Shown here piece by piece: positions 26,457 through 32,000 of a stretch of DNA of 32,000 nt. The notes under the pieces were generated by a model. It worked only from the letters and a program-made list of their open reading frames with translations. It made no database searches and was not told the origin of the DNA. Positions within the stretch are counted from its first letter, which is position 1; the number at the start of each line of letters is the position of its first letter. A program made the translations under genes and the position numbers. Origin of the DNA: Geotalea uraniireducens Rf4 (GTDB lineage: Bacteria; Desulfobacterota; Desulfuromonadia; Geobacterales; Geobacteraceae); contig NC_009483.1 of assembly GCF_000016745.1 (NCBI RefSeq), positions 1,170,001-1,202,000 of the forward strand, given 5' to 3'.

Positions 26457-27178
26457 ACAATAACCGGGACAACTCTCGCACTAACACCATCTATCTCCTG
26501 CGGCACGGTGATCTCCGGCAGGATGGGGTCAAGCGCTACATCGGCCAGGCGGACCTTCCGCTCAACGCATCCGGCCGGGCCCAGGCATTGAACTGGCAGC
26601 AGGAACTGGCCCATATTCCCCTGCGCCGCATCTTCTGCAGCGACCTCAGCCGCTCCTATGAAACTGCCTGCCTCATAGCGGAGGGGAGAAGCGAATCGGT
26701 CCAGCCGTTCCCCAAGTTGAGGGAAATCAACCTGGGGGCGTGGGACGGCCAGTCGGTAGATGACGTGCGCCGGTTCTATCCGGGCGAATACGAGAAACGC
26801 GGCGCCGATATGGTTTACTATCGTCCCCCTGCAGGAGAATGTTTTGCCGACGTGGCGGCTCGGGTTATACCGCTGTTCGAGGAGATAGTGCGCAGCGCAT
26901 CCGGCAATATGCTGATTGTCGGTCATTCAGGTGTGAACAAGGTCATCCTCTGTCATATCCTTGGTATGCCATTGGAGAATCTCTTTCGCATGCGGCAGGA
27001 GTATGGCTGCCTGAATGTCATTGAATGCGGCATGGGTTCCGTGCAGCTGTGCGGAATGAATATCCTGCCGGTTAAAGGGCGCTTTCGGATGGAAATGGAA
27101 CAAGCCGTTGTCAAACCCCAATGCGGCCCCTTTCAACTGCCGGTTTCAGGATTAAAAAACCCGCTGAATCTTTCATGA
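26453..27178 (+). CDS. Histidine phosphatase family protein (CobC/PGAM-like)
   Basis: ATGA overlap with the upstream stop. IYLLRHGD (RHG motif), SDLSRSYETA, MLIVGHSGVNKVIL (second catalytic His). The track ORF from 25955 is an out-of-gene 5' extension in the same frame. Confidence 0.8.
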   Translation: MNNNRDNSRTNTIYLLRHGDLRQDGVKRYIGQADLPLNASGRAQALNWQQELAHIPLRRIFCSDLSRSYETACLIAEGRSESVQPFPKLREINLGAWDGQSVDDVRRFYPGEYEKRGADMVYYRPPAGECFADVAARVIPLFEEIVRSASGNMLIVGHSGVNKVILCHILGMPLENLFRMRQEYGCLNVIECGMGSVQLCGMNILPVKGRFRMEMEQAVVKPQCGPFQLPVSGLKNPLNLS

Positions 27179-27200: not shown

Positions 27201-27452
27201 TTAGGCAGCGGGCTTCAATTCCTCGCGAATCACCTGCCGCAAAATATCCGCCAGCGATTTGTCCTGGTGAATGTATTCCTTCAGAACCTGGTTGATCATG
27301 GTCTGGTAGTTGCCGCCCCCCTGCTTGTCGGCCTTTGCCCTGAACCAGTCGAGAACTTCGTTGTCCAGACGGATGGTTATGCGGGACTTGCCCGGTTCGG
27401 GCTGAACCACGGCACCACGCTTCCCCTTGCCGAAATCATATTCCTTCTTCAT
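27201..27452 (-). CDS. brnA: BrnA-family antitoxin (RHH/CopG-like)
   Basis: 83 aa. SRITIRLDNEVLDWFRAKADKQGGGYQTMINQVLKEYI-type signature (here GGGNYQTMINQVLKEYI). Overlaps the 3' end of the brnT-like gene by 17 nt. Confidence 0.8.
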   Translation of the reverse strand: MKKEYDFGKGKRGAVVQPEPGKSRITIRLDNEVLDWFRAKADKQGGGNYQTMINQVLKEYIHQDKSLADILRQVIREELKPAA

Positions 27453-27711
27453 AGGTCTGCCTCTCTTTCTTCGTGGCCTTCCGGGCCGAGATGATTCTTA
27501 TGACATCCGCGACACGGCTTGCATGAATGACAACGAGTATTTTCAGCGTAAAGTCCATGCCGATGGTGATGAAACGACATTCACCTTCGGCATCTTGGTC
27601 TTCGACGGTTATGGCCAGTTCGTCTTCGAATACGCCAACGGCATCGGCAAAATCCACGCCGTGCTTTTTACGATTCAATGCTGCCTTGTCCGGGTCCCAT
27701 TCGAATTTCAT
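27436..27711 (-). CDS. brnT: BrnT-family toxin (DUF497 ribonuclease)
   Basis: MKFEWDPDKAALNRKKHGVDFADAVGVFED...IISARKATKKE is the DUF497/BrnT signature. ATG 27711 preferred over the track GTG 27726, which abuts a promoter-like element. Confidence 0.8.
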   Translation of the reverse strand: MKFEWDPDKAALNRKKHGVDFADAVGVFEDELAITVEDQDAEGECRFITIGMDFTLKILVVIHASRVADVIRIISARKATKKERQTYEEGI

Positions 27712-27717
27712 GATTTC

Positions 27718-27745
27718 ATTGTGCACACTGTATGTACATTGTCAA
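27718..27745 (-). promoter_or_regulatory. Candidate promoter for brnTA (would give a leaderless or near-leaderless mRNA)
   Basis: Minus strand TTGACA (27745-27740), 16 nt, CACAAT (27723-27718), then 6 nt to ATG 27711. Confidence 0.35.
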
Positions 27746-27822: not shown

Positions 27823-28179
27823 TTAGTGTTTTGTGTCGGAAGCTTTCTTGCCATCCAGCGTGCGGACATCGTACGCGGCAGGCTGCATGGTAACGCCAAA
27901 GATCCTGCGCAGGTTGCTGTTGACGGTATCGATCAAGATATCGAATTCATCAAGGGTATTCACAGTGCCGCGCATCACTTTTTCTTTCAGTCCATTATCG
28001 CGCTGGACAAAGTGCGCCCACTCAATCGAACCGTCTACTTTTTTCTTCGCCAGAAGTTTGTATATGCCAACCTGCGGGATGTGCGGAGTGGCCCATCCAG
28101 CGAAGATCTCTTCGCCTTCCTCTAAGTTCATCACGGCCATTTGGGAGAGGTTGTTTTTGCGAAGGCGCTCAGGGCTCAT
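27823..28179 (-). CDS. Hypothetical 118-aa protein, translationally coupled to the DUF1016 nuclease gene
   Basis: ATG 28179 lies 10 nt after GGAG and overlaps the upstream stop (28169-28171) by 11 nt; ATG 28188 is an alternative. No motif recognised (…IFAGWATPHIPQVGIYKLLAKKKVDGSIEWAHFVQRDNG…). Confidence 0.5.
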   Translation of the reverse strand: MSPERLRKNNLSQMAVMNLEEGEEIFAGWATPHIPQVGIYKLLAKKKVDGSIEWAHFVQRDNGLKEKVMRGTVNTLDEFDILIDTVNSNLRRIFGVTMQPAAYDVRTLDGKKASDTKH

Positions 28180-29332
28180 CGTCACCATTCTCCACTTCGT
28201 TTTGCAGTTCCGCCTCGATCTGCTCAATGGTCGGCAGCGCCGATTTCAGGCTTTCCGGTAAGGCGCGGGTCAGTTCGTAGTCCGAGACACCGATCGGTTT
28301 GTTTATGTCACGCAGGGCATATTCGGCCAGTATCCGGTCCTTGGTCTGGCAGAGAATCAAGCCGATGGTGGGCTGATCGGTGTCGTGCTTCAGTTTGTCG
28401 TCCACCACGGAGCAGTAGAAGTTCATCTTCCCGGCATATTCCGGTTTGAAATCCCCCTTCTTCAGTTCAATCACCACAAAACATCTCAGCCTCAGGTGAT
28501 AAAACAGGAGGTCGATGTAAAAGTCCTTGTCGCTGACCTCCAGGTGATACTGACGTCCGACAAAGGCAAAACCCTGGCCGAGCTCCAGCAGAAATTTTTC
28601 CAGATGGCGGACAAGCCCGGTTTCCAGCTCCCGCTCGTGAAACGGCTCTTCCAGGGTAAGGAAGTCGAAGATGTATGGGTCCTTTAGCAGCTGCCGGGCC
28701 AGGTCGGATTGTGGGGAGGGCAAGCGCTGTCCGAAGTTGGTGACCGCCGCTCCCTGACGTTCGTGGGCATTGCTTTTGATCATTTCCCCGAGCATGTCGC
28801 GGCTCCAGCCGTGCTCGATGGTCTGCTGTATGTACCAAAGGCGGGTTGACAGGTTCTTCACCTTTTCCATAAGCAGGATGTTATGGCCCCATGGAATTTT
28901 TGCAACAAGCTGTTGCAAATTTGCAGAGAGATCATTGATCGGTAATTGTGCCACGGGATGTGGCCCTTTTCCCATCTCTATCATTTCAGCAATAATCTGC
29001 TGATCCATTGGGGATGATTTTAATTTTGCCACAGCCTGTGGCAAAATTGCAGCTTGGGCATATTCCCGATAAAGTGCGATCATCCGGCCGATGTTGCGTT
29101 TTGAGAAGCCTTTGACTTCTGGCATATCATTGCGGATGTCTTTCGCCAGACGCGGGATGACCGCTGTTCCCCAGCCTTCCATCTCCTGCTTTTCAGATAC
29201 CATGCGGCCAACATCCAAGTACATCAGGATCATTTCCGCATTGGCGGAGAGGGTGGCTTTTACCTGTGCCTGCCGGATGCGGGCCTTGATGTCGCCCAGC
29301 AGATCGGTGTAGAGAGTCAAATCAGTGGTCAA
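28169..29332 (-). CDS. DUF1016 / YhcG-family PD-(D/E)XK nuclease-like protein
   Basis: TTG start 7 nt after AGGAG. 387 aa. WGHNILLMEKV...WYIQQTIEHGWSRDML and the C-terminal nuclease core ...FAFVGRQYHLEV..DFYIDLLFYHLRLRCFVVIELKKGDFKPEYAGKMNFY (D...E-L-K) are typical of YhcG. Confidence 0.8.
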   Translation of the reverse strand: MTTDLTLYTDLLGDIKARIRQAQVKATLSANAEMILMYLDVGRMVSEKQEMEGWGTAVIPRLAKDIRNDMPEVKGFSKRNIGRMIALYREYAQAAILPQAVAKLKSSPMDQQIIAEMIEMGKGPHPVAQLPINDLSANLQQLVAKIPWGHNILLMEKVKNLSTRLWYIQQTIEHGWSRDMLGEMIKSNAHERQGAAVTNFGQRLPSPQSDLARQLLKDPYIFDFLTLEEPFHERELETGLVRHLEKFLLELGQGFAFVGRQYHLEVSDKDFYIDLLFYHLRLRCFVVIELKKGDFKPEYAGKMNFYCSVVDDKLKHDTDQPTIGLILCQTKDRILAEYALRDINKPIGVSDYELTRALPESLKSALPTIEQIEAELQNEVENGDDEP

Positions 29333-29469: not shown

Positions 29470-29694
29470 AATCAGCGTTGTCCGGTTTGGTTTTTGCTTA
29501 CGTCCCGTAGGGACAGAATACTGGTAGCCGGGGAATTCATTCCCCGGTCATCCAGGCGAAATATCATCACGTCACGTACGTGACGTGGGGAAATATAGCA
29601 TCTCATCCGGGGGATGAATCCCCCGGCTACATTCGAACGCCCCTAATGGGGCTTAACAACCTTGATGCACAAACCAAACCGGACAACGCTGATT
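29470..29694. repeat. 225-bp nested palindromic element (MITE-like or structured RNA)
   Basis: 28-nt terminal inverted repeats at 29470-29497 and 29667-29694 (27/28). Symmetric inner hairpins at 29502-29514, 29525-29547, 29607-29629 and 29639-29652. Perfect 20-nt central palindrome cacgtcacgtacgtgacgtg (29568-29587). Confidence 0.8.
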
Positions 29695-29818: not shown

Positions 29819-29891
29819 GTTAATATCCGCTGTTAATATCGCCACTGTTAATATCTTCGACACGGTTAATATCTTCGACACGGTTAATATC
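29819..29891. repeat. Five direct GTTAATATC repeats (iteron-like)
   Basis: Copies at 29819, 29832, 29847, 29865 and 29883 (start-to-start spacing 13, 15, 18, 18). The last two are an 18-bp tandem cgacacggttaatatctt / cgacacggttaatatctc. The last copy overlaps the stop codon of the JetD-like gene. Confidence 0.85.
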
Positions 29892-30879
29892 TCTTAAGCC
29901 TCCGGTACCCGGCCCACTCCTGGGAAACCCGGAGATGCTGCAAAAAAATCCCTGGCAACTCGTTCAGATCAGCCTTCCGTATCAAATCAGTGGCTCCAGG
30001 CGAAAGCACACCGCCTGTCTTCGACTCGGCAAATTTCCCACACTCAAGGATGAGGCGGTACAGACGAACCTCCAACTCCAGCTCTCTGCCGGCAGCCGAA
30101 AACTTTCGGGCACCCCGGGCGGCAATCTCCAAACCTTCGTGGTCAGCGTCGCCAAAATACAGAATCCGTGAATGCCCGAACTCTTCCATGATCGGCAAAA
30201 TCCCCTCAACAACCGAGGCAAAACCATTGCCGCGGCCATACACGACAAACCCCCATATACCGGCTTCACGGTTGAACCTCTTCACCACATCATAGGTTGT
30301 CGAGTTCTCAATACATACTCCGGGCAGCTTCTCACTTCCCAGAGGGCCTCGTTCCCAAGCGGCCGGCTCCGGCACATAGTAGCAAGACAGGGCGTCGAGG
30401 GTAATCAGACTGGACTTGAACGCCTGCGCGCCGATCAGGGCATCCAGCATCTTTTCGTCGCCGAAGATCTCCAGCGATCGCTCCCTGACAGGAACCGAGT
30501 CCCGGATAAAGTTTCGGGTTTCCTTGAGCCACTTGTCAATCTTCAGCCATGGAGAGTCGGCAAGCTCTTTCTTCGAAGAGAGAAAGCTAAGCTCAGGAGA
30601 CCAGATGACATGCTCGGCGTATTGTCTTACAACCTTGGTCCGCGGGCGATTGATCCATTTCGGCAAGTGGGGCAGCGCGCTACGATCCCAGCTGGTTGTC
30701 ATCCTGGGGAACTCGATGAACTCCGCATCTTTGATAGCATCAAGCATACTGCGCAACAAGGTCCTCTGTTCTCCTGGAGGAACAGTAGCCACTTCCGACA
30801 AAATCATCCATATCTTGTCCAACATTGTCTTGCCGTAGGGAAGGGCTTCCAGCAATCGGCCGGTCTCAGGACGTTGCAT
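29884..30879 (-). CDS. JetD-like (DUF2220-type) Toprim protein
   Basis: ATG 30879 lies 5 nt after GGGAGG and overlaps the end of the upstream ATPase gene. GVCIENSTTY (Toprim Glu, ~30307-30309) and RILYFGDADHEGLEIA (DxD, 30142-30150) match the JetD/topo-VI-A-like Toprim pattern. RERSLEIFGDEKMLDAL resembles the conserved JetD linker. 331 aa, somewhat short for JetD. Confidence 0.55.
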   Translation of the reverse strand: MQRPETGRLLEALPYGKTMLDKIWMILSEVATVPPGEQRTLLRSMLDAIKDAEFIEFPRMTTSWDRSALPHLPKWINRPRTKVVRQYAEHVIWSPELSFLSSKKELADSPWLKIDKWLKETRNFIRDSVPVRERSLEIFGDEKMLDALIGAQAFKSSLITLDALSCYYVPEPAAWERGPLGSEKLPGVCIENSTTYDVVKRFNREAGIWGFVVYGRGNGFASVVEGILPIMEEFGHSRILYFGDADHEGLEIAARGARKFSAAGRELELEVRLYRLILECGKFAESKTGGVLSPGATDLIRKADLNELPGIFLQHLRVSQEWAGYRRLKRY

Positions 30880-32000
30880 GTGGGACCTCCCGCGAAATCT
30901 CAAGTGTCGCTATTTCCCCCTCGTTGTAAACCGTCTTTTCGTACCTGACGATAGGCTTGCCGGTGCTTTTGATGATGCCGTCCGTGCCGCCTTTCCTGAT
31001 CATGATGTTAAGCGGAAACAGCCGGCGGATATCTTCGTTTTCGGTCGGAGTGCAAGCGACTATTTGAACGCCGTATTGACGCGTCAGGGCTATTACCAGA
31101 CGAATGAAATCGATGTTGGTACATGACCCAAAGGGGTTGTCGAGCAGCATTACGTTGCCACCCTGGCCGTCGACCGACAGCAGGTTGCATATAGCCAGGT
31201 AAAAAAGCACTGCCCCGGACAGCCTTTCTCCGCCGGACCAGGCGTTTAGGCCGGTCGGGTGCTCTATCCCCTTGTAGACTGTCGTGGGCGAAGTGTCCGG
31301 TTTGAGCGTCTCGATGATATAAGCCTTACCGAGAACGGCTGACAGGGCGGTATGGATTATCTCGTCTCCAGCGGGGAGGACTCCGGGTATCTGCGAGATC
31401 ATGGTTACCGTATCGGCAATCGCCTGCCGTGAGGTATCGCTATCGATTTCGATGCGGGTCCGGAACTGGATGAATGGTTTGCCGGACCACTCTGCCCAGA
31501 TACCACCGAGAGCCGGTACCTTGCTGCGGGTGGCGAGTTTGCTGAGATACCCGAAAGCCTTCTTGACGTCCAGCACGACCTGCTCGACAACCTTCTGCTC
31601 GTTTCTCTCATGCTGGCTCAGTTCAAATTTCAACGACTCTATGGCGTTGTGGATCCTGTCAAGGAAACCCGTCACGTCTTCCTTCAGCACTCCACCGGAC
31701 CTGCGCTGCTCTTCCTTGATCAGCGAGCCCATGGAGGCGATCGGCGCGCACAGGTCCTGATCCAGAAGCTCGGCGAGATCAATGTTGAGAGCGCCCAGGT
31801 CACGACCCAGTGAGTCCCGCTCTGTCGACGCCAGCTTCTCCGCCTTTTTAGCGGCAGCGAGGTCCTGCTGTGCTTCCTGGAAATTCGCGTAGGGAGCGCA
31901 GACCTCATCCGCCACCTGGAGGTCCGAAGCAAGAGTAGAAAGCAACTGGACCTGGTACTCGGCACTTGCCAGATCAGCCGCTCTGTTGGCTACGGCCTCG
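30866..32000 (-). CDS. SMC/MukB-like ABC ATPase, C-terminal coiled-coil and head (JetC-like); 5' end outside window
   Basis: The frame stays open to base 32000 (EAVANRAADLASAEYQVQ precedes the track TTG). Long heptad-like coiled-coil segment. Signature-like AWSGGERLSGAV; Walker B VMLLDNPFG; MukB-like tail YGVQIVACTPTENEDI. Confidence 0.55.
   Translation of the reverse strand, partial: EAVANRAADLASAEYQVQLLSTLASDLQVADEVCAPYANFQEAQQDLAAAKKAEKLASTERDSLGRDLGALNIDLAELLDQDLCAPIASMGSLIKEEQRRSGGVLKEDVTGFLDRIHNAIESLKFELSQHERNEQKVVEQVVLDVKKAFGYLSKLATRSKVPALGGIWAEWSGKPFIQFRTRIEIDSDTSRQAIADTVTMISQIPGVLPAGDEIIHTALSAVLGKAYIIETLKPDTSPTTVYKGIEHPTGLNAWSGGERLSGAVLFYLAICNLLSVDGQGGNVMLLDNPFGSCTNIDFIRLVIALTRQYGVQIVACTPTENEDIRRLFPLNIMIRKGGTDGIIKSTGKPIVRYEKTVYNEGEIATLEISREVPHATS

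Follow-up and report, generated by a model that had tools for sequence, protein, structure and literature searches.

Does an asparagine next to the Walker B aspartate set one Wadjet-like locus apart, or is it shared by the class to which the locus belongs? The question is raised by the end of a 32,000-nucleotide stretch of Geotalea uraniireducens Rf4 (the window, positions 1170001-1202000 of the complete 5.14-Mb genome), where a sequence-only reading had noticed the last part of a gene for an SMC (structural maintenance of chromosomes) ATPase with Asp-Asn instead of the usual Asp-Glu, followed by a gene for a JetD-like Toprim protein, and had proposed either a divergent Wadjet subtype or a related, undescribed SMC-Toprim system. 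The window was extended by a second stretch, L002 (1196000-1214000), in which adding 25999 to a position gives the window coordinate, values above 32000 being extrapolated. We are confident, short of certainty, that the locus is the 3′ part of a type III Wadjet operon (JetABCD-III) which is both complete and intact, and that Asp-Asn is found throughout that class.

The operon and its class

When the open reading frames are read past the window edge, four mutually overlapping genes of the minus strand appear in the order jetA-jetB-jetC-jetD, with jetD overlapping the jetC stop by 14 nucleotides. The features are as follows, in window coordinates unless L002 is named, with protein lengths in amino acids (aa):

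35981-37531 (extrapolated; L002 9982-11532), minus strand: jetA, 516 aa
35235-35984 (extrapolated; L002 9236-9985), minus strand: gene in the jetB position, 249 aa
30866 to 35242 (the latter extrapolated; L002 4867-9243), minus strand: jetC (type III), 1458 aa
30866-32000, minus strand: part of jetC inside the window, the C-terminal 377 codons (reading frame 30866-31999, open at the edge)
34613-34618 (extrapolated, beyond the window), minus strand: codons of JetC Glu210-Gly211
31226-31237, minus strand: ABC signature S1336-G-G-E1339 (WSGGER)
31136-31141, minus strand: Walker B Asp1368 (31139-31141) and Asn1369 (31136-31138), within VMLLDNPFG
31049-31066, minus strand: H-loop region Q1393-IVAC-T1398
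29884-30879, minus strand: jetD (type III), ATG at 30879 and stop codon at 29884-29886, 331 aa
L002 3885-4904, minus strand: longer jetD reading frame, 339 aa from a TTG
30304-30309, minus strand: JetD Toprim Glu191-Asn192 (CIENSTTY), in 21 of 21 JetD3 homologs
30142-30150, minus strand: JetD Toprim D244-A-D246 (YFGDADHEG), in 21 of 21 JetD3 homologs

In its C-terminal part JetC has a coiled-coil-like stretch, then AWSGGERLSG and, 27 residues further on, VMLLDNPFG. Translation of 31130-31150 on the minus strand gives MLLDNPF, which fixes the positions of the Asp and Asn codons; the asparagine was thus correctly read, and the D269/N270 of the 359-aa reading frame from TTG in which it had been seen are D1368/N1369 of the full protein. 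The overlapping downstream gene of 331 aa with its ENSTTY and YFGDADHEG motifs lies where it had been placed, and the JetA- and JetB-like genes that had been expected beyond 32000 were found in L002.

The pairing of a Wadjet SMC ATPase with a JetD-type Toprim protein, which had been recognised from the letters, is borne out by the PADLOC models. JetC matched the JetC3 model PDLC00579 (2.5e-67) over residues 4-1417 of its 1458, all its significant PADLOC matches were to JetC3 models, and its C-terminal piece alone still reached JetC3 at 2.3e-16. JetD matched the JetD3 model PDLC00594 (4.2e-53); its match to Pfam JetD_C (1e-4) is at threshold level, with 22.1 bits where 22 is the cut-off. JetA matched the JetA3 model PDLC00567 (3.3e-19) over residues 165-456, and its homologs are syntenic in 57 of 57 type III loci. 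It may be noted that Pfam and NCBIfam recognised none of JetA, JetB and JetC of this locus. No PADLOC match to JetC1, JetA1 or JetB1 (DUF4194) was found at the locus, where JetC is 1458 aa long and carries Asp-Asn, and JetD1 models reached the locus JetD at 2.4e-5 or weaker. Two LmuB models of PADLOC touched JetC in the coiled-coil region (1.7e-4 and 7.7e-4), with no matched stretch, and there is no LmuA-like gene among the operon genes. For MukB the locus JetC had no NCBIfam or Pfam match, and the operon has a Toprim nuclease gene translationally coupled to it, unlike MukBEF; the genome also encodes a separate canonical SMC (TIGR02168, 1104 bits). The PADLOC model PDLC00582, which was run on the genome as well, returned coiled-coil noise only and was discarded.

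The 249-aa protein needed other means, as it has no match in the PADLOC, Pfam and NCBIfam profile searches, and the profile comparison of its family with the JetB3 of Clostridium perfringens by hhalign was not significant. In an iterative search each of the related type III loci (57 of 57) had a homolog located between jetA and jetC, and 3 of 6 distant counterparts reached JetB3 models, weakly. Its AlphaFold2 (AF2) model, with a mean predicted local distance difference test (pLDDT) score of 79.6, has MukE as 8 of the top 10 matches in the PDB, plus ScpB, at probabilities up to 0.99 and template modelling (TM) scores of 0.38-0.51. Because of the synteny, the weak JetB3 matches of its counterparts and this MukE/ScpB-like predicted fold, we assign it as the KITE subunit JetB, of the MukE-like kind as far as the model goes.

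For JetD the picture is sharper. The AF2 model (pLDDT 92.8) has topoisomerase VI-A as its best PDB fold (probability 1.00), along with Spo11 and the Toprim domains of DnaG and Topo II, so that by its modelled fold JetD is a CAP plus Toprim nuclease. No change is seen in 21 diverse homologs at E191/N192, D244/D246 or Q320/E321, nor, in 21 of 21 JetD3 homologs, at Y241, F242, G243 and G249; the conservation of the Toprim acidic residues, on which the sequence-only reading had made its proposal depend, therefore holds for E191, D244 and D246. Toprim Glu mutants of the E. coli JetD (E248A) and the Bacillus thuringiensis JetD (E298A) are without restriction (10.1101/2022.10.04.510915). We take Glu191, presumed rather than aligned, to be the equivalent of the Glu mutated in these two proteins.

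Asp-Asn across type III JetC

A word-indexed search found LDNPFG kept in 36 of 36 proteins, Streptomyces ones at 25% identity included, and close JetC relatives at 47-95% identity retain the full length. The JetC head domain alone was then scanned with HMMER against 1.84 billion cluster representatives, giving 447 matches. The representatives analysed are the best 150 of these 447, mutually less than 50% identical and mostly of about 1450 aa, and among them the D, the N and the P of Walker B are each present in 151 of 151. Six of the most distant representatives score as JetC3 in PADLOC, up to 1e-270.

A sampling that is not circular was obtained by way of JetD. An alignment of 21 JetD sequences led to 80 loci in reference genomes of Geobacterales, Verrucomicrobiota, Actinomycetes, Alpha- and Betaproteobacteria and Xanthomonas, and in 72 of the 80 the gene upstream of jetD was read. 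Long JetCs accounted for 58 of these, with Asp-Asn in 57 and Asp-Asp in one. In 13 others the JetC is short (1130-1196 aa, one cut at a contig end) and has MDEAFSKL, that is Asp-Glu, in the same columns; PADLOC assigns these short JetCs to type I (JetC1 1.9e-127, together with JetA1 and JetB1). The remaining one is an open reading frame of 579 aa (L050) which could not be aligned. Since type I has its Asp-Glu in the same columns, the Walker B register is correct; LFLDEAARLD of E. coli MukB also aligns there, and no alternative Walker B with Asp-Glu was found in the locus JetC.

The single Asp-Asp case (L051, a metagenome-assembled genome (MAG) of Rhizobiales bacterium 64-17) reads FLMLDDTYGMS, against FLMLDNTYGMS in L052-L055, relatives that are almost identical to it. 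Either a variant that is tolerated or an error of assembly could account for this case.

Bacillota were added through two plasmid-borne operons, of Pontibacillus and of C. perfringens pJFP838A, both ordered jetD-jetA-jetB-jetC. They match those type III sub-models that the other sampled sequences match weakly: in PADLOC the C. perfringens operon scores as JetC3 at 3.5e-111, JetB3 at 3e-88 and JetD3 at 1e-99, and the Pontibacillus JetC as JetC3 at 1.2e-86. Their Walker B stretches read ILADNPFG and LIMDNPFA. With these two the sampling takes in both main branches of type III. Also, the Pontibacillus JetC (L087 12526-17643, plasmid NZ_CP062975.1) has 1705 aa, about 250 above the usual length. 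The PADLOC models match it in two stretches set apart from each other (e.g. 1-554 and 1359-1665), an indication that extra sequence is inserted in its coiled coil or hinge.

Judged from these sequences, Asp-Asn is a class-wide hallmark of type III JetC, present in all but one of the 200-plus examined, and the proteins that bear it span Desulfuromonadota, Actinomycetota, Pseudomonadota, Verrucomicrobiota and Bacillota. The substitution had been put forward as an atypical feature of this locus; it turns out to be the norm of the type. It is not a lesion, and it is under purifying selection together with an intact Walker A and signature. The hallmark as we use it, hhhhD-N-[PT] plus an invariant Glu of the N-terminal head (N-head), was derived here and lies outside the published definition of type III; the locus JetC carries both parts (D1368-N1369-P1370 and E210). 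In the literature we found no report of an Asn, or of an absent catalytic Glu, in Wadjet, most subscription journals being outside the search. The interest of the finding is at the level of the class, as a little-noticed trait of type III, and the locus is an ordinary member.

The sampling by JetD brought up a further observation on the nuclease. The 13 operons with short JetC, all from Verrucomicrobiota, are hybrids whose JetA1, JetB1 and JetC1 stand beside a type III-family JetD (L033 4124-10744, L017, L028, L035, L039, L041, L042, L045, L061, L062, L066, L067 and L079). PADLOC scores such an operon at 1.9e-127 for JetC1, with Asp-Glu in Walker B, and its JetD at 1.3e-59 for PDLC00594 and 4e-6 for JetD1, PDLC00594 being also the model that the locus JetD matches best. 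These hybrids suggest that nuclease modules are exchanged between Wadjet types. That one JetD3 subfamily serves both Asp-Glu type I and Asp-Asn motors may be a new point, and because it serves both, the view that an Asp-Asn motor delivers an activating event equivalent to that of an Asp-Glu motor is mildly favoured.

ATP turnover in a head with Asp-Asn

In Walker A of the JetC head, N41-x-x-G44-K45-[ST], the residues N41, G44 and K45 are the same in every type III sequence (155 of 155), and the signature, which aligns with STGE of MukB, has its Ser in 151 of 151 and its second Gly in 148 of 151. Therefore ATP binding and head engagement should be intact. The H-loop region keeps its Q (150 of 151) and a T (142 of 151), the conserved Thr standing at the position of the SMC His; the absence of this His was considered as an oddity of type III and rejected, because MukB (QLIIAAPEN) is also without it. 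The D-loop is non-canonical, P-[FI]-G-x-[CA]-[ST] against [AV]-D-A-[AP]-L-D in SMC proteins, and is itself conserved (P1370 in 151 of 151, G1372 in 148 of 151).

The other conspicuous residue lies in the N-head. Glu210 is invariant in 155 of 155 type III N-heads and is followed by Gly in 148 of 155; with Asp1368 it makes up the whole set of strictly invariant acidic head residues in type III. It sits in a loop of consensus M-N-x-x-E-G-G ('xEGG') just before the helix entering the coiled coil, and the two Bacillota JetCs have the loop as well (SINGDEGD and KLNKDEGM). In SMC and Rad50 heads the place before the coiled-coil helix is taken by the Q-loop 'QG'. The invariance of Glu210, seen as that of a candidate relocated catalytic residue, may be a new point. 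In an hhalign comparison of JetC with the canonical SMC of the genome, an alternative pairing set D-N-P against the D-A-P of the D-loop; we rejected it because the Asp comes immediately after a hydrophobic strand and because the Walker B register is supported alike by the alignments to type I and to MukB. When the halves of the JetC head were compared with PDB chains, by sequence and by profile, no JetC, MukB or SMC structure came up, and the matches to ABC ATPases were confined to the Walker A stretch.

The Wadjet mechanism is known from types I and II only, where JetC needs the Walker B Glu, and type III has been assumed to be alike. By analogy with these two types, JetC dimers would be closed by the kleisin JetA, itself decorated by the MukE-like KITE protein JetB, and the three would make up a DNA-loading SMC motor, which would permit the CAP-Toprim nuclease JetD to cleave small DNA circles. 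In the reading we prefer, such a JetC would still turn over ATP, through a rearranged active site. Glu210 may be the relocated general base, an assignment that from its conservation we hold tentatively and rate somewhat below an even chance, and Asn1369 would take a role in coordinating Mg2+ or water. A complete swap of roles, in which the position following the Walker B Asp has lost the role of general base to the Q-loop-equivalent Glu210 and the protein is a fully active loop-extruding ATPase, is more doubtful. If true, the catalytic geometry would be one undescribed for any SMC or ABC ATPase, and it might resist inhibitors or regulation aimed at canonical heads.

Several points weigh against this reading. 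Type I JetC(E1022Q) shows no ATP hydrolysis, DNA cleavage or plasmid loss (10.1101/2022.10.04.510915), and therefore a head without the Glu might hydrolyse ATP very poorly. The alignments give Glu210 no clear counterpart: opposite it there is a gap in type I (hhalign, overall probability 95%) and a Tyr in MukB ('SLYGG'; N-head probability 38%), and the comparison with the canonical SMC of the genome is unreliable around the Q-loop. The MukB alignment is weak throughout (C-head probability under 1%), its motifs being in register nonetheless. As for the class itself, Wadjet-III was described in March 2025 as 'largely uncharacterized' (10.1101/2025.03.10.642339). Also JetA and JetB of the locus match type III models weakly or not at all; the Geobacterales clade is therefore a divergent branch of type III.

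The strongest competitor takes the Asn at face value, with type III JetC as a hydrolysis-poor ATP-binding switch, whose engagement clamps DNA with very slow or absent turnover, so that plasmids are recognised without sustained loop extrusion or in one or a few ATP cycles, as proposed for LmuB. This we regard as less likely than not. That the general base is replaced by Asn in all the type III JetCs examined but one (an Asp, in one MAG) speaks for it, and so do the abolition of ATPase and cleavage by the equivalent Glu-to-Gln change in type I and the precedent of LmuB, which generally has a natural Walker B Glu-to-Gln substitution and maybe low or no hydrolysis (PMC10586767); with Walker A and the signature intact, binding and engagement should persist. 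It is harder to square with the retention of the full set of SMC motor parts (very long coiled coils, kleisin and KITE), with a JetD3 nuclease subfamily that works with Asp-Glu type I motors too, and with a second invariant Glu, Glu210, that could rescue catalysis; moreover, the type II paper expects extrusion and cleavage across all Wadjet types (10.1101/2025.03.10.642339). Alternatively the catalytic residue could be supplied in trans by JetA, JetB, JetD or the partner head, with hydrolysis gated by assembly or DNA. A conserved non-canonical D-loop would fit an altered dimer interface, but no residue emerged as a candidate, the conservation of JetA and JetB is poor (for JetB, a single invariant column among 29 sequences) and JetD is an unlikely donor because its family also serves Asp-Glu motors; we consider it improbable.

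The remaining explanations concern the locus and not the class, and both have very little room. The first proposal, of an SMC-Toprim system not yet described or of a new subtype of Wadjet, could appeal to the modest JetC3 score here (2.5e-67 against up to 1e-270 elsewhere), to a JetB that matches no model and to the blindness of Pfam and NCBIfam to three of the four proteins. Yet JetC3 matches end to end, and only JetC3 models match significantly, JetA3 and JetD3 match as well, and 57 other type III loci share the gene order, the gene sizes and every head motif, so that a complete jetABCD with JetA, JetC and JetD of type III makes the proposal very improbable; the profile searches and the upstream genes lead instead to a Wadjet of the known types I-III, namely type III. 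A decaying or inactivated copy, with the Glu mutated to Asn, has nothing more in its favour than the substitution itself. Four intact reading frames with coupled overlaps, an Asn invariant across phyla and the full-length relatives noted above leave it scarcely credible. Either type III uses a different route of ATP hydrolysis, for which Glu210 is the candidate, or it senses plasmids without fast turnover, and either outcome would matter for the coupling of ATP to DNA extrusion in SMC motors.

Genomic setting and comparison with known systems

From window position 27000 onward the guanine-plus-cytosine (GC) content is 0.49-0.57, against about 0.62-0.67 before. JetD is present in 1 of the 40 relatives searched and in 0 of 5 genomes of the same genus, and the closest homologs come from Geobacter and from Desulfuromonadales MAGs. 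The neighbouring genes, again by line, are:

27201-27726, minus strand: overlapping pair of BrnT toxin (96 aa, PF04365, 1.6e-27) and BrnA antitoxin (83 aa, PF14384, 7.9e-14)
27823-29332, minus strand: YhcG/DUF1016 PDDEXK nuclease (387 aa; Pfam 2.2e-69, PADLOC PDC-S02 3.8e-149) with an overlapping reading frame
37842-38999 (extrapolated; L002 11843-13000), minus strand: HTH_3 plus M78/ImmA-IrrE peptidase protein, 385 aa (PADLOC PD-Lambda-2_B 7.1e-34)

The BrnT/BrnA pair stands downstream of the operon, on the left-hand border of the low-GC island. Between this pair and jetD is the YhcG gene, and the reading frame that overlaps it (134 aa from a TTG) has no family match. The HTH-M78 gene lies directly upstream of jetA. 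None of these neighbours (BrnT/BrnA, YhcG and HTH-M78) recurs beside the operon in 80 related loci. For the HTH-M78 peptidase and YhcG genes a role as regulators or partners dedicated to the operon was weighed and rejected, because neither has a counterpart in any of the 80; the HTH-M78 gene is probably a separate gene of the island and not a Wadjet regulator. An operon in a horizontally acquired, low-GC defence island fits these data because of the low GC, the non-recurring neighbours and the sparse occurrence of JetD among relatives. Next to the operon, five GTTAATATC direct repeats are reported at 29819-29891, abutting the jetD stop, and a nested palindrome of 225 bp at 29470-29694. The locus itself is an ordinary, complete type III Wadjet anti-plasmid operon, and as such it bears on the plasmid transformation of Geobacter-type strains.

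Type III is reportedly a class of Doron et al. 2018. The locus resembles it in its four-gene operon, in a JetC of about 1450 aa with an end-to-end JetC3 match, in the JetD3 and JetA3 matches and MukE-like JetB, and in the Asp-Asn-Pro of Walker B and the 'EG' loop of the N-head. It differs in gene order, jetABCD here against jetD first in the two Bacillota operons, in the H-loop region, which reads 'A[CFY]TP' in the branch of the locus and 'YTTG' in most members, and in a JetB that the models leave unrecognised and a JetA that they match weakly. The operon named as the type III representative is that of B. thuringiensis (10.1101/2025.03.10.642339), which blocks plasmid transformation in B. subtilis and needs the Toprim Glu of its JetD to do so (10.1101/2022.10.04.510915); among type III operons, plasmid restriction is known for this representative alone.

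Type I (E. coli GF4-3, Pseudomonas aeruginosa JetABCD and MksBEFG of Corynebacterium glutamicum) has the same kleisin, KITE, SMC ATPase and CAP-Toprim nuclease; the N-heads align at 95% hhalign probability, and the logic of extrusion followed by cleavage is presumably common to both. However, its JetC is about 1100-1150 aa long, has Asp-Glu in Walker B (MDEAFSKL) and is without the 'EGxxG' loop segment. MukBEF comes close in SMC length (1486 aa in MukB against 1458 aa in JetC) and in the MukE-like fold of JetB, and the pairs STGE/SGGE, LFLDE/LLLDN and QLIIAAP/QLIYTTG are in register, neither protein having the H-loop His; but MukB has Asp-Glu, a Tyr at the Glu210 position (in a low-confidence alignment) and no nuclease partner, and it belongs to a chromosome-organising complex and not to defence. 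Lamassu LmuB offers the other parallel, being a defence SMC-like ATPase naturally without the Walker B Glu (PMC10586767). It is a Rad50-like protein of about 650 aa that works with LmuA effectors instead of a kleisin, a KITE protein and a Toprim nuclease, and its substitution is Gln, whereas that of type III JetC is Asn.

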